A DNA stretch of 39,500 nucleotides, from the sequence record PP766721.1; one strand, written 5' to 3'. This DNA is from Escherichia phage Baskent_phicoli_1. Each line of letters opens with the position of its first letter. Positions within the stretch are counted from its first letter, which is position 1. The notes below the pieces were generated by a model. The model did no database searches. It saw nothing but the letters and a program-made list of their open reading frames with translations, and was not told where the DNA came from. This document shows, one piece after another, positions 4,235-38,687 of the stretch. A program made the translations under genes and the position numbers.

Positions 4235-5119
4235 ATGTCTCAATCAGTTTATGCCGAGTTTGGCGTTAGCTCTACTGCAATCACGGGTTCCGTTGAGGAC
4301 CTGAACGAACACCAAAAGTCTATGCTTGAACAGGACGTAGCTGTTCGTGATGGAGACGACGCTATTACCTTCAAGCAACTGGAAGCCGAAAACGAAGAGG
4401 CGACCGAAGAAGACGAGAACGTCGAAGAGACTGAAGGTGAAGAAGACCATGAGTCCGATGACGAAGAGTCTGAGACCGATGGTGAGCAGCCTGAGTTCAT
4501 CGAACTGGGTGATGCACCGAAAGAGCTGACCGAAAGTGTCACCGCCTTGGATGAAAATGAAGCTGCATTCGACGACATGGTGTCTTCTGCTGTGGAAGCT
4601 GGCAAGGTCACTGCTGATGAAATTACCGCTATCAAGGCTGAATACGCCAAGGACGGTAAGCTGTCTGACGCATCCTACGCTAAGTTGCAGGAAGCAGGTT
4701 ACACCAAGCGTTTCGTAGATTCGTTTGTACGTGGTCAGGAAGCTCTGGCTGAACAGTATGCTGCTGGTGTGGTTCGCTACGCTGGTGGAGCTGAACAGTT
4801 TAATCGAATCCTGTCACACCTTGAGTCCAACGACCCGTCAACTCGTGAAGCACTGGAAGCTGCTATCGTTCGTAAGGACATCGCGACTACCAAAGCTCTG
4901 CTGAATCTGGCTGGAAAGACTCTGGGTAAAGCTGTGGGTGTTAAACCTCAGCGTACCATCACCACTCAGGCTAAACCTGTGGTCGCACCTAAGGCTCCTC
5001 AGACCGAAGCATTCAGCTCCAAGGCTGACATGATTAAGGCAATGAGTGACCCGCGCTACCTGCGTGACGCTAAGTACACGATGGAAGTTCGCGCTAAGGT
5101 AGCTGCCTCAAGCCTGTAG
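4235..5119 (+). CDS. gp9: Capsid assembly scaffolding protein, gene 9
   Basis: 294 aa, strongly acidic (E/D-rich) N-terminal third, position between portal and capsid genes. Confidence 0.88.
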   Translation: MSQSVYAEFGVSSTAITGSVEDLNEHQKSMLEQDVAVRDGDDAITFKQLEAENEEATEEDENVEETEGEEDHESDDEESETDGEQPEFIELGDAPKELTESVTALDENEAAFDDMVSSAVEAGKVTADEITAIKAEYAKDGKLSDASYAKLQEAGYTKRFVDSFVRGQEALAEQYAAGVVRYAGGAEQFNRILSHLESNDPSTREALEAAIVRKDIATTKALLNLAGKTLGKAVGVKPQRTITTQAKPVVAPKAPQTEAFSSKADMIKAMSDPRYLRDAKYTMEVRAKVAASSL

Positions 5120-5120
5120 G

Positions 5121-5143
5121 ACTAAACTATCACTATAGGGAGA
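5121..5143 (+). promoter_or_regulatory. Phage RNAP promoter phi10 (full consensus), +1 G about 5138
   Basis: TAAACTATCACTATAGGGAGA directly upstream of major capsid gene with long leader and strong SD. Confidence 0.85.
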
Positions 5144-5243: not shown

Positions 5244-6293
5244 ATGGCAAACGTTCCGGGTCAGAAAATTGGTACAGACCAAGGTAAAGGCAAATCTAGT
5301 TCCGACGCTCTGGCGTTGTTCCTGAAGGTCTTTGCTGGTGAAGTCCTGACCGCATTCACTCGCCGCTCTGTAACGGCTGACAAGCATATTGTCCGTACCA
5401 TTCAGAACGGTAAGTCTGCTCAGTTCCCGGTCATGGGTCGCACCTCTGGTGTGTATCTGGCTCCCGGTGAGCGACTGTCCGATAAGCGTAAAGGTATCAA
5501 ACATACCGAGAAAGTGATTACCATTGATGGTCTGCTGACTGCCGATGTGATGATTTTCGACATTGAAGACGCGATGAACCACTATGACGTGGCTGGCGAG
5601 TACTCCAACCAGTTGGGTGAAGCTCTGGCTATCGCTGCTGATGGTGCGGTTCTGGCTGAAATGGCTCTCCTGTGTAACCTCCCGGCCGCATCCAACGAGA
5701 ATATTGCCGGTCTGGGCACTGCGTCAGTACTTGAAGTTGGTACTAAAGCCGACCTGAACACTCCGGCTAAGCTGGGTGAAGCAATCATCGGTCAACTGAC
5801 CATTGCTCGTGCGAAGCTGACCTCCAACTACGTTCCTGCTGGCGACCGATACTTCTACACCACGCCGGACAACTACTCTGCAATCCTCGCGGCTCTGATG
5901 CCGAACGCTGCTAACTATGCTGCGCTGATTGACCCAGAGACTGGCAACATCCGTAACGTGATGGGCTTCGTTGTTGTTGAGGTCCCGCATCTGGTGCAGG
6001 GTGGTGCTGGTGAGACCCGTGGTGACGATGGTATCTCTATCGCCTCCGGTCAGAAACACGCATTCCCGGCGACTGCTGCTGGCGACGTTAAAGTTGCTAT
6101 GGACAACGTTGTGGGTCTGTTCTCTCACCGTTCTGCTGTGGGTACTGTGAAGCTGCGTGACTTGGCGCTGGAACGTGACCGTGACGTCGATGCTCAGGGC
6201 GACCTGATTGTTGGTAAGTACGCTATGGGTCACGGTGGTCTGCGTCCTGAAGCAGCGGGCGCACTGGTTTTCACAGCAGCGTCAGCGGGTTAA
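5244..6293 (+). CDS. gp10A: Major capsid protein 10A
   Basis: 349 aa; LALFLKVFxGEVLTAF, KSAQFPV, KHTEKVITIDGLLTADV, EDAMNHYDV, LMPNAANYAALIDPE, RNVMGF, HRSAVGTVKLRDLALER, KYAMGHGGLRPEAAGA match T7 gp10A. Confidence 0.97.
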   Translation: MANVPGQKIGTDQGKGKSSSDALALFLKVFAGEVLTAFTRRSVTADKHIVRTIQNGKSAQFPVMGRTSGVYLAPGERLSDKRKGIKHTEKVITIDGLLTADVMIFDIEDAMNHYDVAGEYSNQLGEALAIAADGAVLAEMALLCNLPAASNENIAGLGTASVLEVGTKADLNTPAKLGEAIIGQLTIARAKLTSNYVPAGDRYFYTTPDNYSAILAALMPNAANYAALIDPETGNIRNVMGFVVVEVPHLVQGGAGETRGDDGISIASGQKHAFPATAAGDVKVAMDNVVGLFSHRSAVGTVKLRDLALERDRDVDAQGDLIVGKYAMGHGGLRPEAAGALVFTAASAG

Positions 6294-6556
6294 CGACCTT
6301 TAAGGCCCTCTCTACCGAGGGTCCTACCTTAGAGACGTATAGTTCTACGGTGGGAACCAGCTTGAAGGTTGACTTACCGGAGCTTTCAGATGTGACCGAC
6401 TGGTCGCTGCTTGATGTTACTACGCCTGATGGTGTTAGTTACTCCCGTAGAACCAACAGTCTCTACTTCAAGGCCACCTCTGGCGTGGAAGGTCTAGTGA
6501 TTGTTGAGTATGACGGTTCGCCTGTGCGTTCCTTCAACGTATCTTTCACAAACTAA
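6266..6556 (+). CDS. gp10B: Predicted -1 frameshift extension producing minor capsid protein 10B (slippery heptamer G GTT TTC at 6266-6272; -1 frame open to TAA 6554-6556)
   Basis: The -1 frame is open from 6251 across the 10A stop to 6556; heptamer sits 7 codons before the 10A stop, homologous to the T7 10A/10B site. Confidence 0.6.
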   Translation, partial: GFHSSVSGLTTFKALSTEGPTLETYSSTVGTSLKVDLPELSDVTDWSLLDVTTPDGVSYSRRTNSLYFKATSGVEGLVIVEYDGSPVRSFNVSFTN

Positions 6557-6558
6557 TT

Positions 6559-6598
6559 GAAACCCCTTGGGTGCCTTCGGGTGCTTGAGGGGTTTTTT
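6559..6598 (+). terminator. Tphi-like terminator for phage RNAP
   Basis: AACCCCTTGGGTGCCTTCGGGTGCTTGAGGGGTTTTTTG, near-identical in design to T7 Tphi (AACCCCTTGGGG...CTTGAGGGGTTTTTTG). Confidence 0.8.
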
Positions 6599-6613: not shown

Positions 6614-7180
6614 ATGGCTCAATACATTCCACTGAATGCTAACGATGACTTAGATGCCATCAACGATATGTTAGCTGCTATCGGTGAACCAGCAGTCCTA
6701 CAGCTTGACGAAGGCAATGCTGACGTCTCGAATGCTCAACGTATCCTGCATCGTGTCAATCGTCAGGTCCAAGCTAAAGGCTGGAACTTTAATATCAACG
6801 AAGCTGCCGTCCTGACACCTGATGTCAAAGACAATAGGATTCGATTCTTGCCGTCATACCTTCGTGTAATGACCGCTGGTGCCACCAGCTACTACAGCAA
6901 CATGGGTGGATACCTGTACGACCTATCCACTCAGTCAACCACTTTCACCGACCCTATCACGGTAGAGCTTGTGGAGATGAAGCCATTCTCCGAGATGCCT
7001 GTGGTCTTCAGGGACTACATCGTCACTAAAGCTAGCCGTGAGTTTAACGCTAAGTTCTTCGGTAGCCCAGAGTCAGAGCTATACCTTCGTGAGCAGGAAG
7101 CAGAACTCTATCAGCAGGTTATGGAGTACGAGATGGACACTGGTCGCTACAACATGATGTCTGACATCGGGAGGGACTAA
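6614..7180 (+). CDS. gp11: Tail tubular protein A, gene 11
   Basis: 188 aa; position and size as T7 gp11 (196 aa). Confidence 0.88.
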   Translation: MAQYIPLNANDDLDAINDMLAAIGEPAVLQLDEGNADVSNAQRILHRVNRQVQAKGWNFNINEAAVLTPDVKDNRIRFLPSYLRVMTAGATSYYSNMGGYLYDLSTQSTTFTDPITVELVEMKPFSEMPVVFRDYIVTKASREFNAKFFGSPESELYLREQEAELYQQVMEYEMDTGRYNMMSDIGRD

Positions 7181-7407
7181 TGGCTAGTCACAACCTGAAG
7201 ATTCACCGCCAGCATTTTGGTCCGGTACAGCTAGGTCTAAAGACAGCAGAGCTTAGACTTAACGACCGGGACTTTAAGGTTGGTGACTGGCTTATCCTGA
7301 ATGAGTGGGACAACGGGTATACTGGACAACAGGTAGCGCGTAAGGTTGTCCACATTGCTGACGTTGGTGACATCGCTGAAGGATACGTCCTAATGAGTAT
7401 GATTTAA
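7180..7407 (+). CDS. DUF3850/ASCH-like small protein (extra gene, not in T7)
   Basis: 75 aa; HNLKIHxxHFxPVxxGxKTAELRLNDRDFKVGDWLILNEW fits the DUF3850 (ASCH/PUA-like) signature from memory; ATGA-coupled to gene 11. Confidence 0.55.
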   Translation: MASHNLKIHRQHFGPVQLGLKTAELRLNDRDFKVGDWLILNEWDNGYTGQQVARKVVHIADVGDIAEGYVLMSMI

Positions 7408-20569: not shown

Positions 20570-22333
20570 TTGAGTAAAGACTTAGTGGCGCGTCAGGCGC
20601 TAATGACTGCCCGTATGAAGGCAGACTTCGTGTTCTTCCTGTTCGTCCTGTGGAAAGCTCTGTCGCTCCCAGTCCCGACTCGCTGTCAGATTGACATGGC
20701 GAAGAAACTATCGGCTGGGGACAACAGGCGCTTCATCCTGCAGGCGTTCCGTGGTATCGGGAAGTCCTTCATTACGTGTGCCTTCGTTGTCTGGAAGCTA
20801 TGGAACAACCCAGACTTGAAGTTCATGATTGTGTCGGCCTCAAAGGAACGAGCCGATGCTAACTCCATCTTCATCAAGCGAATCATCGACCTCATGCCTC
20901 AGCTTCAGGAACTCAAACCTAAGCAGGGACAGCGAGATGCGGTTATCAGCTTCGACGTTGGACCAGCCAAGCCCGACCACTCACCTTCGGTTAAGTCCGT
21001 TGGTATCACTGGTCAGTTGACTGGTAGTCGTGCTGACATCCTGATTGCCGATGACGTGGAGGTCCCTAACAACTCAGCGACTCAGGCTGCACGAGACCGT
21101 CTGTCAGAGCTTGTGAAAGAGTTCGACGCTATCCTGAAGCCGGGAGGTACAATCATCTATCTGGGTACTCCTCAGAACGAGATGACCTTGTATCGTGAGC
21201 TGGAAGGCCGTGGATACACCACTACTATCTGGCCTGCTCGTTATCCACGCGATAAGAAGGACTGGCAGTCTTACGGCGACCGTCTGGCACCGATGCTTCA
21301 GGCAGAGCTGGAAGAGGACCCTGAGTCCTTCTACTGGCGTCCGACTGATGAAGTACGCTTCGATGATACGGACCTGAAGGAACGTGAGCTGTCCTATGGT
21401 AAAGCTGGCTTCGCTCTACAGTTCATGCTTAACCCGAACCTTAGTGATGCCGAGAAGTACCCTCTGAAGCTCCGTGACCTTATCGTAGCAGACTTGGACC
21501 CAGCGTCCAGCCCAATGGTCTACCAATGGCTGCCAAACCCTCAGAACAAGCGTGAGGACGTCCCTAACGTTGGACTCATGGGTGACTCATACCACACGTA
21601 TCAGACTGTAGGTTCTGCCTTCAGTTCGTACACCCAGAAGATTCTGGTCATTGACCCTAGTGGTCGTGGTAAGGATGAAACTGGCTATGCGGTACTGTAC
21701 CAGCTCAACGGCTACATCTTCGCTATGGAAGTTGGTGGTATGCGTGGTGGTTATGAAGACTCTACGCTGGAAGCTCTGGCTAAGATTGGTCGTAAGTGGA
21801 AGGTCAACGAATACGTCATTGAGGGTAACTTCGGTGATGGTATGTACCTTGAGCTATTCAAGCCCGTAGCAGCCCGTATCCACCCTGCTGCTGTAACTGA
21901 AGTGAAGAGTAAGGGTCAGAAAGAACTCCGCATCTGTGACGTTCTGGAGCCTATCATGGGGTCTCACCGACTTATCGTTAACGCTGCTGCTATCGTCCAA
22001 GACTACCAGTCGGCCTCTGATAAGGATGGTGTTCGTAACCCTATCTACTCTCTCTTCTACCAGATGACACGTATCTCTCGTGAACGTGGAGCCTTGGCAC
22101 ACGATGACAGACTTGATGCGCTGGCTATCGGTGTACAGTTCTTCGTTGAGTCTATGGCTAAGGATGCCAACAAAGGCGAACGTGAAGTCACTGAGGAGTG
22201 GCTGGAGGAACAGATGGAGAACCCACGGAAAGGCTTCGAGTCCATCCACACTGAGTTCTGGGACAATGGGGTCCGGGTAACTCACGATACGGACGACGAG
22301 CTGGGGCTAGGGTCCTACGTTACGTTTCACTAG
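20570..22333 (+). CDS. gp19: Terminase large subunit (DNA maturase B), gene 19; apparent TTG start
   Basis: 587 aa; [23 protein letters not shown], [76 protein letters not shown], [25 protein letters not shown] essentially as in T7 gp19; AAGGAGG SD 7 nt before TTG. Confidence 0.97.
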
Positions 22334-25799: not shown

Positions 25800-28481
25800 A
25801 TGAGCGTCATCTCTATTGACAAACACGACTTCTCTGATGTGTCAAACGCCATTGAGCCGTTTAACCTGCTGGCCGACCACTACGGGCAAGACCTTGCAGT
25901 CAAACAGCTTCAGCTTGAGCATGAGGCATACACTGAAGGCGAGCGACGTTTCATCAAAAACCTTGAGCGACAGACTGAGCGCGGGGAACTGGCAGACAAT
26001 CAGGTCGCCAAGCCTTTGATGCAGACTCTGGTTCCTAAGATTGCGCAAGCCGTCAGGGAGTGGCACGAAGGTCCAGACGGGAAGCTGTCAACCTCTCGTC
26101 CGAGCGTAGCGTTCACCATGTTGAGCACTGAAGAGAAGGCCGTCAAGGACCGCTCTATGCGTATCTCCTGTGAGTCTGCTGCGGTCATCATACTGAAGGT
26201 CATACTCTCCAAGCTGGTCAAGCCTGAAGGTATACCGATTACACCGATGGCCTCAGCGATAGGTCGCACACTTGAGGACGAAATCCGCTTCGGTCGCATC
26301 CGTGACAAGGAGAAGGAGCATTTCAAGAAGGCGATAGCTGAGAACTTGAACAAGCGAGCTGGGGTATCCTACAAGAAAGCCTACATGCAAGCTGTCGAGG
26401 CATCCATGCTGGAGCAAGGCCAACTGGAAGATGCATGGGGAACTTGGAGTCCGACCGAGGCTGTCCACGTTGGAATCAAGATGCTTGAGATCGTCATCCA
26501 GTCAACACAGCTGGTCGAGCTTAAGCGTTATGGTGCTGGCAATGCAGCAGCTGACGTCGAGATGGTCCACCTGACAGACTTCTGGGTCAAGAAGATGGCA
26601 CAACGAGGATTCAGCCTTGCGGGTATCGCTCCAGTCTACCAGCCTTGCGTAGTTCCACCTAAGCCGTGGACTGGTGTAGTGGGAGGTGGATACTGGGCCA
26701 AAGGTCGCAGACCGTTGCCATTGATTCGCTTAGGGTCTAAGTCTGCGGTGGCACGTTATGAAGACGTATACATGCCTGAAGTCTATGACGCTGTGAATAT
26801 CATCCAGAATACACCTTGGAAAGTGAACAAGAAGGTTCTGGACGTGGTGAACATGGTCGAGAAGTTGAACAACACGCCTATTGATGACATCCCTCAGATG
26901 GAGCCACTGAAGCCTGAAGACTATGCGGGCGAGACTGAAGAGGAACTCAAGGCATGGAAGAAAGCTGCTGCTGGTATCTACCGCCGAGAGAAGGCCCGGC
27001 AGTCACGCAGATTGTCACTAAGCTTTATCGTCAACCAAGCGAACAAATTCTCTCAGTTCAAGGCCATCTGGTTCCCGTACAACATGGACTGGCGCGGACG
27101 CGTCTACGCTGTTCCGATGTTCAACCCTCAGGGTAACGACATGCAAAAAGGGCTCCTTACTCTGGCAGTCGGCAAGCCCATTGGTGCCGATGGTTTTAAA
27201 TGGCTGAAGGTCCACGGTGCAAACTGCGCGGGTATTGATAAAGTCACCTTCGAGGAGCGCATCAAGTGGGTGGAAGACAACCACGACAACATCATGGCTG
27301 CTGCTAAGGCACCGATGGACAGCATTGAGTGGTGGGGAAAGTTAGACTCTCCATTCTGCTTCCTAGCGTTCTGCTTCGAGTATGCTGGCGTAATGCACCA
27401 CGGATTGTCTTACTCCTGCTCGCTGCCGATAGCGTTCGATGGGTCATGCTCTGGGATTCAACACTTTAGCGCGATGCTTCGTGATCACATCGGTGGACAT
27501 GCAGTAAACCTGACGCCTTCAGGTAAGGTCCAAGACATCTACCGCATCGTGTCTGACCGCATTGAGGAAGAGCTTAAAGTCCTGCTGGTTAAGGGCACGG
27601 ACAACGAGGTGGTCACTCACGAGGACAAGAAAACTGGTGAGATTACCGAACGTCTCAAGCTGGGGACACGAGAGCTGGCCCGTCAGTGGCTGACTTACGG
27701 TATGTCACGCAAGGTCACTAAGCGCTCAGTCATGACTCTGGCCTACGGGTCGAAAGAGTATGGCTTCGCAGACCAAGTTTACGAGGACATCGTGATGCCA
27801 GCGATTGACTCAGGGTCTGGCGCTATGTTCACCGAACCAAGCCAAGCGTCCCGCTTCATGGCTAAGATGATTTGGGAAGCTGTGAGCGTGACCGTAGTTG
27901 CTGCTGTTGACGCGATGAAGTGGCTTCAGGGTGCTGCCAAGCTGCTGGCTGCTGAAGTGAAGGACAAGAAGACTGGAGAAATCCTGAAGCCTTGCCTTCC
28001 GGTACACTGGGTCACACCTGATGGTTTCCCTGTCTGGCAGGAATACCGCAAGAAGGATACCACTCGTCTGAACCTGATGTTCTTAGGGTCATTCAACCTT
28101 CAACCTACGGTCAACAAGGGCACGAAGAAAGAGCTGGACAAGCACAAGCAGGAGTCAGGCATTAGCCCGAACTTCGTCCACTCACAAGATGGGAGCCACC
28201 TACGCAAGACTGTAGTCCACACTCACCGCAAGTATGGTGTTATGTCATTCGCAGTGATTCACGATAGCTTCGGGACCATCCCGGCTGACGCTGAGTATCT
28301 GTTCCGTGGTGTCCGTGAGACGATGGTCGAGACCTACCGCGACAACGACGTGCTGCTTGACTTCTACGAGCAGTTCGAATACCAGCTTCATGAGAGCCAG
28401 CGCGACAAGTTGCCCGAGCTTCCGAAGAAAGGTAAACTGAACATCGAAGACATTCTGTCTTCAGACTTTGCATTCGCTTAA
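25800..28481 (+). CDS. gp1: Single-subunit DNA-dependent RNA polymerase, gene 1
   Basis: 893 aa; collinear with T7 RNAP throughout (NxAKxDFSD, PFNxLADHYG, FPYNMDWRGRVYAV, MFNPQGNDMxKGLLTLA, DGSCSGIQHFSAMLRD, VTKRSVMTLAYGSKE, VHWVTPDGFPVWQEY, HKQESGIxPNFVHSQDGSHLRKTV, IHDSFGTIPADA, FAFA C-terminus). Confidence 0.98.
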   Translation: MSVISIDKHDFSDVSNAIEPFNLLADHYGQDLAVKQLQLEHEAYTEGERRFIKNLERQTERGELADNQVAKPLMQTLVPKIAQAVREWHEGPDGKLSTSRPSVAFTMLSTEEKAVKDRSMRISCESAAVIILKVILSKLVKPEGIPITPMASAIGRTLEDEIRFGRIRDKEKEHFKKAIAENLNKRAGVSYKKAYMQAVEASMLEQGQLEDAWGTWSPTEAVHVGIKMLEIVIQSTQLVELKRYGAGNAAADVEMVHLTDFWVKKMAQRGFSLAGIAPVYQPCVVPPKPWTGVVGGGYWAKGRRPLPLIRLGSKSAVARYEDVYMPEVYDAVNIIQNTPWKVNKKVLDVVNMVEKLNNTPIDDIPQMEPLKPEDYAGETEEELKAWKKAAAGIYRREKARQSRRLSLSFIVNQANKFSQFKAIWFPYNMDWRGRVYAVPMFNPQGNDMQKGLLTLAVGKPIGADGFKWLKVHGANCAGIDKVTFEERIKWVEDNHDNIMAAAKAPMDSIEWWGKLDSPFCFLAFCFEYAGVMHHGLSYSCSLPIAFDGSCSGIQHFSAMLRDHIGGHAVNLTPSGKVQDIYRIVSDRIEEELKVLLVKGTDNEVVTHEDKKTGEITERLKLGTRELARQWLTYGMSRKVTKRSVMTLAYGSKEYGFADQVYEDIVMPAIDSGSGAMFTEPSQASRFMAKMIWEAVSVTVVAAVDAMKWLQGAAKLLAAEVKDKKTGEILKPCLPVHWVTPDGFPVWQEYRKKDTTRLNLMFLGSFNLQPTVNKGTKKELDKHKQESGISPNFVHSQDGSHLRKTVVHTHRKYGVMSFAVIHDSFGTIPADAEYLFRGVRETMVETYRDNDVLLDFYEQFEYQLHESQRDKLPELPKKGKLNIEDILSSDFAFA

Positions 28482-36452: not shown

Positions 36453-36497
36453 GTCTAGACTCAAGGTCATTCACATCGAGTGGCCTTTATGATTAGA
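36452..36497 (+). promoter_or_regulatory. Conserved structured element (putative RNase III site, R4.7-like) upstream of gene 5
   Basis: TAGACTCAAGGTCAT-N10-GTGGCCTTTATGATTA. Confidence 0.55.
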
Positions 36498-36515
36498 CTA
36501 AACGGAGGATTAACC

Positions 36516-38687
36516 ATGTTTGACCTTAAGAGTATCTGGGGTTCTGACATCGAGACCAACGGTCTCCTTGATACAGTCTCCCAGTTTCACTGTGGGGTCC
36601 TGATTAACGCCGAGTCGAATGAGACCCTTAAGTATGGGGTGGCTCCGATGGTCGGTATCGTCGGTGGCTTCAAAGAGTATGTGCGGAAGGTGGAAGAGAT
36701 TGCCGCATCACCTGATGGTATGCTGGTATTCCACAATGGTATCAACTATGACGTCCCTGCTATTGACAAGCTGAAACGTCTGTACTTTGGGAAACGATTT
36801 AACTTCCCGAAACACAAGATGATTGATACCTTGGTTCTGGGACGCTTGATGTATCCCAACATTAAGTTCTCAGACATGGGCGCGGTGAAAGCTGGTCGTC
36901 TGCCACCTAAGATGATGGGACGCCAGTCTCTTGAGGCTTGGGGCTATCGTCTCGGTGAAATGAAGGGTGAGTACAAACACGATTACGTTGCCAAGTGCAA
37001 GGCTGAAGGTATCGAATATAAGTCTGGGGACGAATGGTTGTTCCCGTCTCAGGAGATGCTGGACTATAACGTTCAGGACGTTGTGGTCACATTGGCATTG
37101 TTCAAGAAGTTCCTGACTGACAAGTATTACTTCCAGTCTGAACAGTTCGCCTTCGAACAGATTTATGCGTTGCGTCTGGAACATGATGCTGCGTGGACCT
37201 GTGCGAAGATGGAGCGTAACGGCTATCCGATGAACACAGAGATGGTCGAAGGCTTATATCGTGAACTCACTGTCAAACGTGCGGAGTTGCTGGACAAGCT
37301 GCGCTCGACTTTCGGTAGCTGGTATGCACCAAAGGGTGGCAAGGAGTTCTTCAGGCATCCACGTACAGGTAAGGACCTTCCGAAGTATCCGAGAGTCGTG
37401 TATCCTAAGGTCGGTGGCATCTTTAAGAAGCCGAAGAACAAAGCTCAACGCTTAGGTCTTGAACCTTGTGAACGCGATACGCGAGACACGATGGAAGGAG
37501 CACCATTCACGCCAATCACTTACGTTGAGTTTAATCCGGGAAGCGGAGACCACTTAGCGAAAGTCTTGATGGAGCGTGGCTGGGAGCCTGTGGACTTCAC
37601 TGACACTGGGAAACCTGTAGTCGATGACGAGACGTTGGAACACGTTAAGTTACCAGACGCAGAGGCTCAGGCTTGCGTAGAGCTGGTCCGTGAGTATCTG
37701 GTAGTCCAGAAGCGCATCGGGCAGGCTGCTGAAGGTAAGAACGCTTGGTTGAAACTTGTAGGTCCAGACGGACGTATGCACGGTTCAATCAACCCTTGTG
37801 GAGCAGTAACCGGACGTGCGACCCATAGTTCACCAAACATGGCTCAGGTCCCGGCTAACGGTGCTCCGTATGGTGAGACTTGCCGTGGTGCTTTCGGTGC
37901 AGCGTGGAACAAGAAGGACGGTAAGCCAGACCCTTGGATTCAAGTAGGTGTGGACGCCTCAGGTCTTGAGCTTCGTTGTCTGGGGAACCGAGCGGCTCCG
38001 TTTGATGGTGGAGATTATGCGAAGACTGTGGTCGAAGGTGACATCCACTGGGCCAACGCAGTCAACGCTGGGTTAGCACCTAACGTCCCACGCGACAAGT
38101 CGAGCCACGACCACGATGCTTTCCGTAACAACGCTAAGACGTTCATCTATGCGTTCCTGTATGGTGCAGGGGCAGCTAAGATTGGACTGATAGTCGGCGG
38201 TGGTAAGAAGGAAGGCGCGGCCCTGATGAAGAAATTCATTGAGGGTACACCAGCCATCAAGGATCTGCGAGAGGCTGTGCAGAACACGCTCATCTCAGAG
38301 TCGAAGTGGGTAGATGGTGAGAACATCGTGAAGTGGAAACGTCGCTGGCTGAAAGGTCTGGATGGTCGCCGCATTCACATCCGGTCCCCACACTCAGCAC
38401 TTAACGCCCTACTTCAGGGTGATGGTGCGGTAGTCTGTAAGCACTGGATTGTCGAGACCGAGCGTATGCTCGAAGAGGCCGGGTATGTCCACGGCTGGGA
38501 AGGAGACTTCGCGTACATGGCTTGGGTTCACGATGAGCTACAGATTGCGTGTCGTACTCAGGAGATTGCCGAAGAAGTCGTCAAGATTGCTCAACTTGCT
38601 ATGCGTAAGGTGGGTGAGTTCTATAACTTTAAATGTGTCCTTGATACCGAAGGTAAGATTGGACCAACGTGGAAGGAGTGTCACTAA
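36516..38687 (+). CDS. gp5: DNA polymerase, gene 5 (start moved to ATG 36516 with GGAGG SD; ORF-track start 36480 lies in the upstream element)
   Basis: DIExNxLLxxVxxFHCGV, HNGxxYDVPA, IDTLVLxRL, LEAWGYRLGEMKGEY, DYNVQDVVVT, thioredoxin-binding-loop-like PKYPRxxxPKVGGIFKKPKNKAQR, AVTGRATH, DASGLELRCL, NAKTFIYxFLYGAG, AYMAWVHDE match T7 gp5. Confidence 0.96.
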   Translation: MFDLKSIWGSDIETNGLLDTVSQFHCGVLINAESNETLKYGVAPMVGIVGGFKEYVRKVEEIAASPDGMLVFHNGINYDVPAIDKLKRLYFGKRFNFPKHKMIDTLVLGRLMYPNIKFSDMGAVKAGRLPPKMMGRQSLEAWGYRLGEMKGEYKHDYVAKCKAEGIEYKSGDEWLFPSQEMLDYNVQDVVVTLALFKKFLTDKYYFQSEQFAFEQIYALRLEHDAAWTCAKMERNGYPMNTEMVEGLYRELTVKRAELLDKLRSTFGSWYAPKGGKEFFRHPRTGKDLPKYPRVVYPKVGGIFKKPKNKAQRLGLEPCERDTRDTMEGAPFTPITYVEFNPGSGDHLAKVLMERGWEPVDFTDTGKPVVDDETLEHVKLPDAEAQACVELVREYLVVQKRIGQAAEGKNAWLKLVGPDGRMHGSINPCGAVTGRATHSSPNMAQVPANGAPYGETCRGAFGAAWNKKDGKPDPWIQVGVDASGLELRCLGNRAAPFDGGDYAKTVVEGDIHWANAVNAGLAPNVPRDKSSHDHDAFRNNAKTFIYAFLYGAGAAKIGLIVGGGKKEGAALMKKFIEGTPAIKDLREAVQNTLISESKWVDGENIVKWKRRWLKGLDGRRIHIRSPHSALNALLQGDGAVVCKHWIVETERMLEEAGYVHGWEGDFAYMAWVHDELQIACRTQEIAEEVVKIAQLAMRKVGEFYNFKCVLDTEGKIGPTWKECH

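Follow-up and report, generated by a model that had tools for sequence, protein, structure and literature searches.

A probable T7-type programmed -1 ribosomal frameshift in capsid gene 10 of a Kayfunavirus and the predicted Ig-like extension of its 10B product

The window analysed here, a stretch of DNA with a length of 39,500 nucleotides, originates from a Kayfunavirus, hence from the K1F-like phages of the T7 group. Its gene 10A product matches the Pfam family Gp10A-like with an E value of 9.6e-105, and relatives that are 95-97% identical label their gene 10A counterpart as major capsid protein. The gene order scaffold, gene 10, gene 11 was found to be kept in relatives. Upstream of gene 10 a promoter-like sequence for the phage RNA polymerase was located (Table 1), which may resemble the T7 consensus, ...CACTATAGGGAGA, and the records of T7 and T3 mark the phi10 promoter at the equivalent place.

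Close to its 3' end, gene 10A carries a heptamer that is identical to the shift site of T7 gene 10. The preliminary description had placed this GGTTTTC seven codons ahead of the 10A stop and had reported the -1 frame to be open from 6251 to 6556, and direct reading of the sequence confirmed both statements. Counted from 5244, the zero-frame codons at the slip site are GTT (6267-6269, codon 342, Val) and TTC (6270-6272, codon 343, Phe), with TTC located seven codons before the stop codon TAA (6291-6293, codon 350). In the -1 frame a TGA at 6248-6250 is followed by a stretch without any stop that ends with the TAA at 6554-6556, whereby the first codon to be read after a tandem slip is CAC (6272-6274) and the last sense codon is AAC (6551-6553). 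The predicted 10B protein thus comprises 437 aa, namely 343 residues in common with 10A and 94 new ones. The earlier statement that a shift adds about 94 residues is therefore correct for the number of new codons but not for the net gain over the 349 aa of 10A, which is 88. Taken by itself, the heptamer GGTTTTC is no rarity; within the window it occurs once, with 4.3 occurrences expected. The open -1 frame past the stop was rejected as stand-alone evidence for frameshifting, as many genes of the window possess the like; with genes packed this closely, the -1 frame past a stop is commonly kept open over a long distance by the following gene, which is often encoded in it.

Table 1. Features of the gene 10 region, given in positions of the window
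Feature	Position	Strand	Basis
Promoter-like sequence for phage RNA polymerase, ACTAAACTATCACTATAGGGAGA	5121..5143	+	Location upstream of gene 10, context
Gene 10A, major capsid protein, 349 aa, zero frame	5244..6293	+	ORF; Pfam Gp10A-like PF21703
Slip site G GTT TTC	6266-6272	+	Sequence; same as T7 gene 10 shift site
10B-specific coding region, 94 codons and stop TAA 6554-6556	6272..6556	+	-1 frame translation, pN/pS
Linker, extension residues 1-20, predicted to be disordered	6272..6331	+	AF2 pLDDT
RNA hairpin, core stem 6304-6310 with 6317-6323	6298..6334	+	Folding energy, synonymous randomisation
Predicted Ig-like beta-sandwich, extension residues 21-94, 7 strands	6332..6553	+	Structure model
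Mechanically called ORF, GTG start, 68 aa	6350..6556	+	Tail of the extension
Tphi-like intrinsic terminator hairpin, CCCC 6563-6566	6559..6596	+	Terminator scan, folding energy

Comparison with relatives also bore out the claim that the frameshift site is conserved. The slip codons GTT and TTC were found without any codon change in 62 distinct relatives, T7 and K1F among them, while the background is given by 5 codon-invariant codons out of 27 nearby degenerate codons that are invariant at the amino acid level; the Ala and Gly codons flanking the slip site vary freely at their synonymous sites. At most loci GTTTTC is preceded by G; L029 has A at this position, and the Dickeya phages have C, so that re-pairing in the P site is not conserved. 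The C following the T run and the A thereafter are both strictly conserved. For the extension, pN/pS was determined to be 0.22-0.25 in the -1 frame, as compared with about 1.6 for each of the remaining frames, and the purifying selection acting on the -1 frame is strong in two independent clades. The -1 ORF is unbroken in 70 of the 72 slip-site loci, and the extension peptide (PHROG 7473) is present in 454 phage records, with 40-55% identity across genera. Judged by these comparative data, the slip site is non-random.

The ORF starting with GTG at 6350 had been described as forming the end of the extension rather than a gene of its own, an assignment which is upheld by several findings. For the post-slip codons 9-26, i.e., the 18 codons that follow the 10A stop and precede the GTG, pN/pS in the -1 frame is 0.27, which documents that the sequence ahead of the GTG is selected in the same frame. 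Moreover, no SD sequence precedes the GTG, and the lineages have no conserved start codon in common. The opposite reading, according to which the ORF is an independent gene for a free Ig-like protein with the heptamer being incidental, is very improbable, even though gene callers mark the ORF in this way in many relatives and even though it spans nearly the whole folded domain. Against it stand the start position, which shifts among relatives such that the gene callers propose proteins of anything between 54 and 87 aa, the -1 frame itself, which no lineage interrupts on the way back to the slip site, and the invariance of the slip codons. The extension of K1F contains no ATG, GTG or TTG anywhere. 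As to existing annotations, the extension tail is recorded as a separate gene in Pkp-1, U8 and 101120B2; the Kayfunavirus Peacock is annotated with a joined CDS of predicted 437 aa, accompanied by a note that cites -1 frameshifting.

A free protein, in this case of about 87 aa, would also result from reinitiation at or near the 10A stop, i.e., from translational coupling without formation of a fusion. One sub-lineage (L007, L008 and L031; proteins P0001-P0003) indeed possesses an ATG that overlaps the 10A stop in the form TAATG, which is a classic coupling arrangement. However, the window has ACG at this position and no start codon before 6350, and the ATG is missing from most Kayfunaviruses as well as from all Przondovirus and Ningirsuvirus loci. 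Reinitiation furthermore leaves the invariance of GTT TTC unexplained, and overall it was considered to be highly unlikely.

As another source of 10B a minority transcript was considered, which would be formed when the phage RNA polymerase stutters on the run of four T and adds one U. The invariant core of the site is the homopolymer TTTT, and no computed result tells slippage at the RNA level from slippage at the level of the ribosome, but appreciable transcriptional slippage needs runs of about 7-9 or more, a length which four T do not come near. In the recoding literature the T7 site is treated as a case of ribosomal tandem slippage (PMC5009743). The strictly kept C and A behind the run fit codon-anticodon re-pairing better than stuttering, to which little probability was given. 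Next to none was assigned to the view that the open -1 frame is the decaying relic of a once fused domain whose expression has been lost: the two remaining slip-site loci (L026 and L069, 2/72) do have deletions within the extension domain that damage it, meaning that in some cases at least the phage can do without the domain, and T7 10B is generally regarded as non-essential, but the strong purifying selection in two independent clades, the frame kept intact in 70/72 loci and the identity retained across genera contradict the loss of expression.

With programmed -1 frameshifting as the preferred reading, RNA structures in the vicinity of the slip site come into focus. For a stimulatory structure the preliminary description had pointed to positions 6273-6320; the search carried out there revealed none at canonical spacing, and a selected hairpin was found to start only from 6298. 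Positions 6273-6297 are unstructured (dG -2.4, z +0.31), and no stem-loop or pseudoknot was found 5-9 nt 3' of the heptamer. Upstream of the heptamer, an SD-like stimulator conserved among the relatives was likewise not found: Peacock has AGGAG upstream of the slip site (GCA GGA GCA), and the window reads GCG GGC GCA. The hairpin at 6298-6334 has a dG of -14.7 kcal/mol (z -2.6) and is more stable than synonymous-codon randomisations of the same region (z -3.0, p about 0.002). It is separated from the slip site by a spacer of 25 nt (31 nt in case of the core stem), and is located 4-10 nt 3' of the 10A stop. Other clades with the Ig-like module possess hairpins at the same place which are unrelated in sequence; the Przondovirus hairpin shows covariation, and compensatory changes within the hairpins of the clades carrying the module even alter amino acids. 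The stability signal is absent in K1F and not significant in T7. It is conceivable, if rather doubtful, that the hairpin has a function at the RNA level and was inherited together with the Ig-like module, serving either as a long-spacer (21-31 nt) modulator of 10B:10A or acting on ribosomes at the 10A stop. If true, neither role would conform to the 5-9 nt spacing that is canonical for stimulators of -1 frameshifting.

Further candidate elements were considered and rejected. For Przondovirus, RNAalifold predicted a long-range helix whose closing pair lies 4-5 nt 3' of the heptamer, but it showed no covariation and did not differ from shuffles; this helix is not predicted in the Kayfunavirus alignment. 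A slip in the P site on G GGT TAA at the stop was discarded, with the context being unconserved outside one sub-clade. Likewise discarded was a queue at the 10A stop, in which the terminating ribosome would force the one behind it onto the heptamer: the distance between heptamer and stop varies between 5 and 8 codons, counted from GTT, and such a distance is shorter than the ribosome footprint, which was counted against the queue model. The terminator hairpin (dG -25.2 kcal/mol, z -5.5) begins 3 nt past the 10B stop and can be aligned to T7 Tphi as well as to the terminators of K1F and Przondovirus, whereby its CCCC is located 291 nt 3' of the heptamer. In T7, the CCCC within the terminator, more than 200 nt downstream, was reported to affect gene 10 frameshifting (PMC5009743). 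Pairing of the CCCC in the window with GGG at 6287-6289 (GCG GGT TAA) was identified by inspection, but was dropped because it comprises 5 bp only and because the GGG is absent from L009-type and Przondovirus loci.

The protein added by the -1 frame had been described earlier as the C-terminal decoration domain of a 10B-like minor capsid protein. This description is supported insofar as the structural model, with a linker followed by an Ig-like domain, is consistent with surface decoration. For the extension residues 1-16 an AF2 pLDDT below 50 was obtained, and the linker differs in both sequence and length between the clades, the frame always being kept. Behind this presumably flexible linker the extension is predicted to fold as an Ig-like domain, and comparison of the modelled domain with the PDB using Foldseek yielded the lambda gpV C-terminal domain as best match. 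At the sequence level, no significant Pfam family was found for the extension in a search with the window and 8 diverse members, no sequence match was found in the PDB, and no similarity was detectable between the T3 Big_2 extension and that of the window (hhalign probability 1.2%). An exhaustive profile search matched the BACON-repeat protein P0038 with an E value of 1.5e-13 summed over 5 repeats; hhalign with one BACON repeat gave a probability of 83%, a weak similarity for which there is no direct Pfam BACON match, and the other profile-search matches are assorted Ig-like repeat proteins. With the C-terminal domain of lambda gpV, T4 Hoc and the BACON-type domains of gut phages the extension shares an Ig-like sandwich on a virion protein, which is a prediction in the case reported here, and it differs from these decorations in having no significant Pfam Ig-like match. 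A role as weak surface or glycan adhesin may be speculated upon by analogy.

Among known systems, T7 is closest with regard to the slip site; its programmed -1 frameshift of gene 10A/10B was reportedly described by Condron, Atkins and Gesteland in 1991. The T7 GGTTTTC site is reported to work with an efficiency of about 10%, with constructs into which the heptamer alone was transplanted giving <1% (PMC1635266). Mechanistically it was assigned to ribosomal tandem slippage on G_GUU_UUC, with G_GU representing the X_XX part, and is listed as an intermediate case (PMC5009743). The window and T7 have in common the gene family, the identical heptamer at the homologous position 5-8 codons ahead of the 10A stop and a -1 ORF that extends to the homologous Tphi terminator with its CCCC; with K1F included, the aligned C-terminal codons give the context ...AGA(L/V) V F.... 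The T7 tail, however, comprises 56 residues after the slip and is Ala/Glu/Lys-rich and not Ig-like, whereas the 94 residues of the window, consisting of a linker and a predicted Ig-like domain, are unrelated to it, and the local hairpins of T7 are unlike that of the window in sequence and spacing.

K1F, the type species of its genus, shares with the window the genus, the heptamer and its context (CTG GTT TTC) and the terminator. It differs by a shorter extension of 48 residues after the slip ('44 triplets' being added according to PMC6277420), which is T7-tail-like (TLTPQQKAARTRAAN), and lacks both the Ig-like module and the selected hairpin. When GFP was fused to K1F g10b it was displayed and the virions were fluorescent (PMC6277420), and further g10b fusions were reported (PMC13370021), which means that the -1 frame of K1F is translated and its product incorporated into virions. 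The 10B proteins of T3 and phiYeO3-12 are likewise products of a -1 frameshift in gene 10 and end before Tphi in an Ig-like domain that is about as large (PMC5009743), but the T3 slip site is C CCA AAG on Pro-Lys codons and the domain is recognisably of the Big_2 type. For the Kluyvera phage Kvp1, 10B was verified by mass spectrometry, with the slip located at TTTTCA (PMC2579914). Kvp1 provides direct peptide evidence for this class of mechanism, i.e., a poly-U/Phe slip in a T7-like capsid gene, albeit from another genus and with a shorter extension, its 10B having about 372 aa. In the literature, a larger minor capsid species has been demonstrated in virions for T7 and Kvp1, and in an indirect manner for K1F. 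Proteomic proof of the longer 10B in Kayfunavirus or Przondovirus was not found in literature searches. The canonical bacterial -1 cassette, as known from E. coli dnaX, consists of an upstream SD, the heptamer X XXY YYZ and a stem-loop after about 6 nt. To this type the window is similar as regards tandem slippage and the formation of two products at fixed ratio from one gene. It differs in that its heptamer is an imperfect X XXY YYZ, with GGT as first triplet and with C GTT TTC and A GTT TTC also occurring in relatives, and in having neither a conserved SD-like element upstream nor a structure 5-9 nt downstream.

Considering all of this, capsid gene 10 of the window is suggested, with a probability of roughly 90%, to undergo programmed -1 ribosomal frameshifting of the T7 type. 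What the sequence comparisons show is the anatomy of the site, the invariance of the slip codons, purifying selection acting on the -1 frame and the fact that the extension has no start of its own. As such the frameshift is already known, as it is established in T7, Kvp1 and K1F and annotated in Peacock, and for the phage described here the slip itself and its efficiency are proposed by homology. The suggested mechanism assumes that most ribosomes read 10A through to its stop codon TAA (6291-6293), yielding the 349-aa major capsid protein, and that a minority, with GUU in the P site and UUC in the A site (6267-6272), slips back by one base. Here, re-pairing of tRNA-Phe would be full (UUC to UUU) and that of tRNA-Val partial (GUU to GGU). 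After the slip, translation would continue with CAC at 6272 for 94 codons and end at the TAA just ahead of the Tphi-like terminator. Within the 10B protein thus formed, the junction peptide YAMGHGGLRPEAAGALVFHSSVSGLTTFK, spanning Val-Phe-His, is to be expected. As the capsid body of 10B is the same as that of 10A, 10B would co-assemble into the shell, with its C-terminus, i.e., a flexible linker of ~20 residues and an Ig-like domain of ~74 residues, being exposed on the capsid surface.

The understanding of frameshifting is unchanged by this result, the practical value of which mainly concerns annotation. For Kayfunavirus, Przondovirus and their relatives, many GenBank records list the extension as a separate 'hypothetical protein' of 54-87 aa, and some of these records tag the 10A-length capsid CDS as 'minor capsid protein', where a joined 10B CDS is due instead. 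Relevance to phage-display and phage-therapy engineering arises because the K1F fusions were placed at the natural 10B C-terminus (PMC6277420, PMC13370021). With respect to the Studiervirinae as a whole, the comparison shows that different C-terminal modules can be exchanged behind a slip site that itself stays the same (GTT TTC). In T7 and K1F it is followed by short charged tails, while most Kayfunaviruses, Przondovirus and Ningirsuvirus have an orphan Ig-like domain there; in T3 a Big_2 domain is found behind another slip site.

The best-supported account of how 10B arises in the window is a programmed -1 frameshift of the T7 type at the heptamer GGTTTTC (6266-6272), which the frame of 10A, the zero-frame product of capsid gene 10, reads as G GTT TTC (Val-342, Phe-343). 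As claimed in the preliminary description, this slip site lies seven codons before the 10A stop (TAA 6291-6293, codon 350, seven past TTC), and the -1 frame is open after TGA 6248-6250 and on to TAA 6554-6556. Since slippage leads to CAC (6272-6274) as the next codon and to 94 residues, translation across the slip yields a 10B of 437 aa as compared to 349 aa for 10A; the earlier estimate of about 94 added residues hence holds when counted from the slip, the net gain over 10A being 88. By itself the heptamer is statistically unremarkable (1 occurrence in the window vs 4.3 expected), and an open -1 frame beyond a stop is commonplace in this tightly packed genome. The weight of the case rests on comparative evidence and neither on the heptamer count nor on the open frame.

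Features in and around capsid gene 10 of the window
Feature	Position	Strand	Support
Scaffold gene, one flank of gene 10	4235-5119		
T7-type major capsid protein (10A)	5244-6293	+	Pfam Gp10A-like, E 9.6e-105
RNA hairpin closely following the 10A stop	6298-6334 (core stem 6304-6310/6317-6323)	+	dG -14.7, z -2.6
Intrinsic terminator, 17-bp hairpin and U-run	6559-6596	+	dG -25.2, z -5.5
Tail tubular gene 11, other flank of gene 10	6614-7180		

A similarity search with the 1.6 kb around the site matched 306 phage records, mainly Kayfunavirus (K1F-like, Studiervirinae, T7 group) phages of Escherichia, Salmonella, Enterobacter and Klebsiella, with the Kayfunavirus AN24P4 as top match (97% identity). 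The window resembles a circularly permuted, near-complete genome of ~39.5 kb that opens with the late structural genes (portal at 2551, ORF of terminase large subunit size at 20570-22333) and has, in the second half, ORFs of RNA polymerase size (25800-28481) and DNA polymerase size (36480-38687), all these roles being taken from ORF size and order only. In many close relatives, terminator and gene 11 are separated by an additional ~100 bases (L003, L004 positions 1760-1918), where a 30-aa ORF is annotated in MZ234023; BLAST matches fall into two pieces because the window is without this segment (between 6600 and 6614). Between tail genes 11 and 12, a 75-aa ORF (7180-7407, + strand), whose ATG overlaps the gene 11 stop, encodes a DUF3850/ASCH-domain protein (Pfam E 1.9e-19), a gene that T7 does not have at this position and that is annotated at the same place in the related phage EV136_1.

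The comparison drew on 74 related loci, taken from phage records in GenBank and contigs in IMG/VR. All 72 loci that cover the region with a site of this type, T7 and K1F included, have GTT TTC in the homologous place, preceded by G in most, by C in four Dickeya (Ningirsuvirus) loci and by A in one. Across 62 distinct sequences both GTT and TTC are codon-invariant, as compared to 5 of the 27 amino-acid-invariant degenerate codons within the last 40 codons of 10A, and the neighbouring Ala and Gly codons make free use of two or three synonymous codons. Judged from the alignment, such invariance is what selection acting on the slip site at the nucleotide level would be expected to leave, and the site was rightly described as conserved. 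In T3, C CCA AAG lies past the GTT TTC position by one to two codons, in agreement with a report of shifting on lysyl codons in T3 and phiYeO3-12 and on the poly-U/Phe site in Kvp1 and phiA1122 (PMC2579914).

In 70 of the 72 loci with a slip site, the -1 ORF runs unbroken from the heptamer onwards and ends at a stop directly ahead of the terminator. Beyond the 10A stop, pN/pS of this frame (Nei-Gojobori counts) amounts to 0.22 among 17 distinct Kayfunavirus-type and 0.25 among 41 Przondovirus/Ningirsuvirus-type sequences, vs ~1.6-1.7 in the remaining two frames. The 18 codons from the 10A stop to GTG 6350 behave alike (0.27 vs 1.9-2.1), and translation must therefore enter upstream of this GTG, for which no Shine-Dalgarno sequence was found. 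Candidate starts within the extension vary by lineage, and that of K1F holds no ATG, GTG or TTG anywhere. As neither a Shine-Dalgarno sequence nor a start is shared between lineages, gene callers deliver products of 54, 63, 64, 68, 75 and 82-87 aa for this region.

Four alternatives were weighed, to which jointly less than one chance in ten is given, each clashing with the pattern of selection, with the absence of conserved starts or with the codon invariance of the slip site. Termination-reinitiation at the 10A stop finds a point in its favour in one Kayfunavirus sub-lineage (L007, L008, L031; locus ~720-722) where the stop reads TAATG, but the window has ACG in place of this ATG. In the sub-lineage (proteins P0001-P0003, P0005) the ATG lies in the extension frame and, as it overlaps the 10A stop, a free 87-aa linker-plus-domain protein could also arise there. 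An independent 68-aa gene at 6350-6556 conflicts with purifying selection upstream of its GTG, the missing Shine-Dalgarno sequence and starts that are not shared, which bears out the earlier reading of this ORF as the tail of the extension. Transcriptional slippage on the run of four T and a decaying relic of an ORF are judged improbable on the same body of evidence.

Programmed frameshifting is suggested to proceed as a tandem -1 slip on G GUU UUC, whereby the A-site tRNA-Phe would re-pair fully (UUC to UUU) and the P-site tRNA-Val only partially (GUU to GGU), consistent with C or A being tolerated at the first heptamer position in relatives. For T7, an efficiency of ~10% in native context and of <1% for the transplanted heptamer was reported (PMC1635266), hence context elements matter. 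The proposed search for stimulatory structure at 6273-6320 revealed none in the first 25 nt after the heptamer, which are unstructured (dG -2.4, z +0.3) and thus provide no canonical proximal stimulator, and returned a hairpin starting at 6298, off the usual stimulator spacing. Lying 25-31 nt from the heptamer, this hairpin is equalled in folding by 0.2% of 1000 synonymous-codon randomisations (z -3.0) and has equivalents in L007, L009 and L010-L015. Other lineages with the Ig module (linker and predicted Ig-like domain) gave z -2.1 to -5.3, the latter for Przondovirus; no significant signal was obtained in L032 (a Kayfunavirus sub-lineage), L029, K1F (z +0.8) or T7 (z -1.6), and the rest of the extension yielded nothing. 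The hairpins of the different clades are unlike in sequence and alike in place, 17-29 nt past the heptamer, a distance larger than a canonical frameshift stimulator allows. In Przondovirus the hairpin is 98.9% paired over 26 sequences with 10 double-change cells vs 3.5 +/- 1.3 in shuffles (0/500 as high), the compensatory changes altering residues on both arms (Thr to Val/Ala with Ser to Pro). Given the stability excess over synonymous codons and the covariation, the hairpin appears to be under selection. The terminator hairpin begins after a 2-nt gap from the 10B stop. It can be aligned at every base to T7 Tphi as well as to its K1F and Przondovirus counterparts, and they have in common a CCCC run, a candidate distant element located 291 nt from the heptamer in the window; for T7, such a run in the terminator was reported to influence gene 10 frameshifting (PMC5009743). 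In phage Peacock (L001, ~1458-1469) AGGAG, part of GCA GGA GCA, precedes the heptamer at a distance of 4 nt, the window counterpart (6254-6265) being GCG GGC GCA; this AGGAG resembles the Shine-Dalgarno-like stimulator of dnaX, and being strain-specific it could make frameshift efficiency differ among close relatives.

Behind GTT TTC the 10B tails fall into mutually unrelated classes. That of T7 comprises 56 post-slip residues and is Ala/Glu/Lys-rich; the K1F tail resembles it and has 48 post-slip residues, a length in line with the addition of '44 triplets' given in PMC6277420. The window class, with 91-96 residues in most loci and 103 in L029, is shared by most Kayfunaviruses and reappears, at 40-55% identity, in Przondovirus phages of Klebsiella and Ningirsuvirus phages of Dickeya. 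An AlphaFold2 model from 25 sequences (mean pLDDT 81) predicts residues 1-16 as disordered and seven strands within residues 21-94 (pLDDT ~90), and this modelled Ig-like fold supports the earlier proposal of a C-terminal decoration domain at fold level. The domain matches PHROG 7473, whose function is unannotated, and gave no significant match in Pfam, none among PDB sequences and no similarity to the Big_2-type tail of T3 (hhalign probability 1.2%), rendering it an orphan by sequence. When 1.8 billion representatives were searched exhaustively with a profile, the hits were chiefly the same small ORF fragments, next to various Ig-like repeat proteins, a BACON-repeat protein among them, that matched weakly over several repeats. 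These weak matches of the domain profile (6332-6553) are to large secreted proteins with Ig-like repeats in tandem (P0038, P0040, P0046), of the types BACON with Por secretion tail, He_PIG/PKD and invasin/Big_1. With an hhalign probability of 83% against a single BACON repeat, a remote BACON-like relationship may exist and is taken as a lead only. Two loci carry natural deletions, L026 (IMGVR_UViG_2974604219) of the domain's second half together with the terminator 5' arm, and L069 (IMGVR_UViG_3300045988_007064) of 32 nt that include the final beta-strand as well as the stop of 10B, which suggests, unless these are assembly errors, that the Ig-like domain is dispensable. T7 10B is likewise held to be dispensable.

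As the whole capsid fold is common to both proteins, 10B would co-assemble with 10A, and the linker and Ig-like domain would project out of the shell. Direct precedents are Kvp1 10B, verified by mass spectrometry (PMC2579914), and K1F g10b::GFP and adhesin fusions, which decorate virions (PMC6277420, PMC13370021). In K1F, type species of Kayfunavirus, the frameshift has been both described and put to use, and the Peacock record contains a joined CDS, likewise predicted at 437 aa, with a note attributing it to -1 frameshifting. The T7 gene 10 frameshift has been textbook knowledge since 1991. In view of these precedents the call is correct but already known. Many public records mis-annotate the extension tail, listing it on its own under the name 'hypothetical protein' or 'minor capsid protein'. 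Less documented are the orphan Ig-like nature of the window's extension class, the way 10B tails are exchanged as modules while the slip site stays the same, and the apparently selected hairpin just past the 10A stop.
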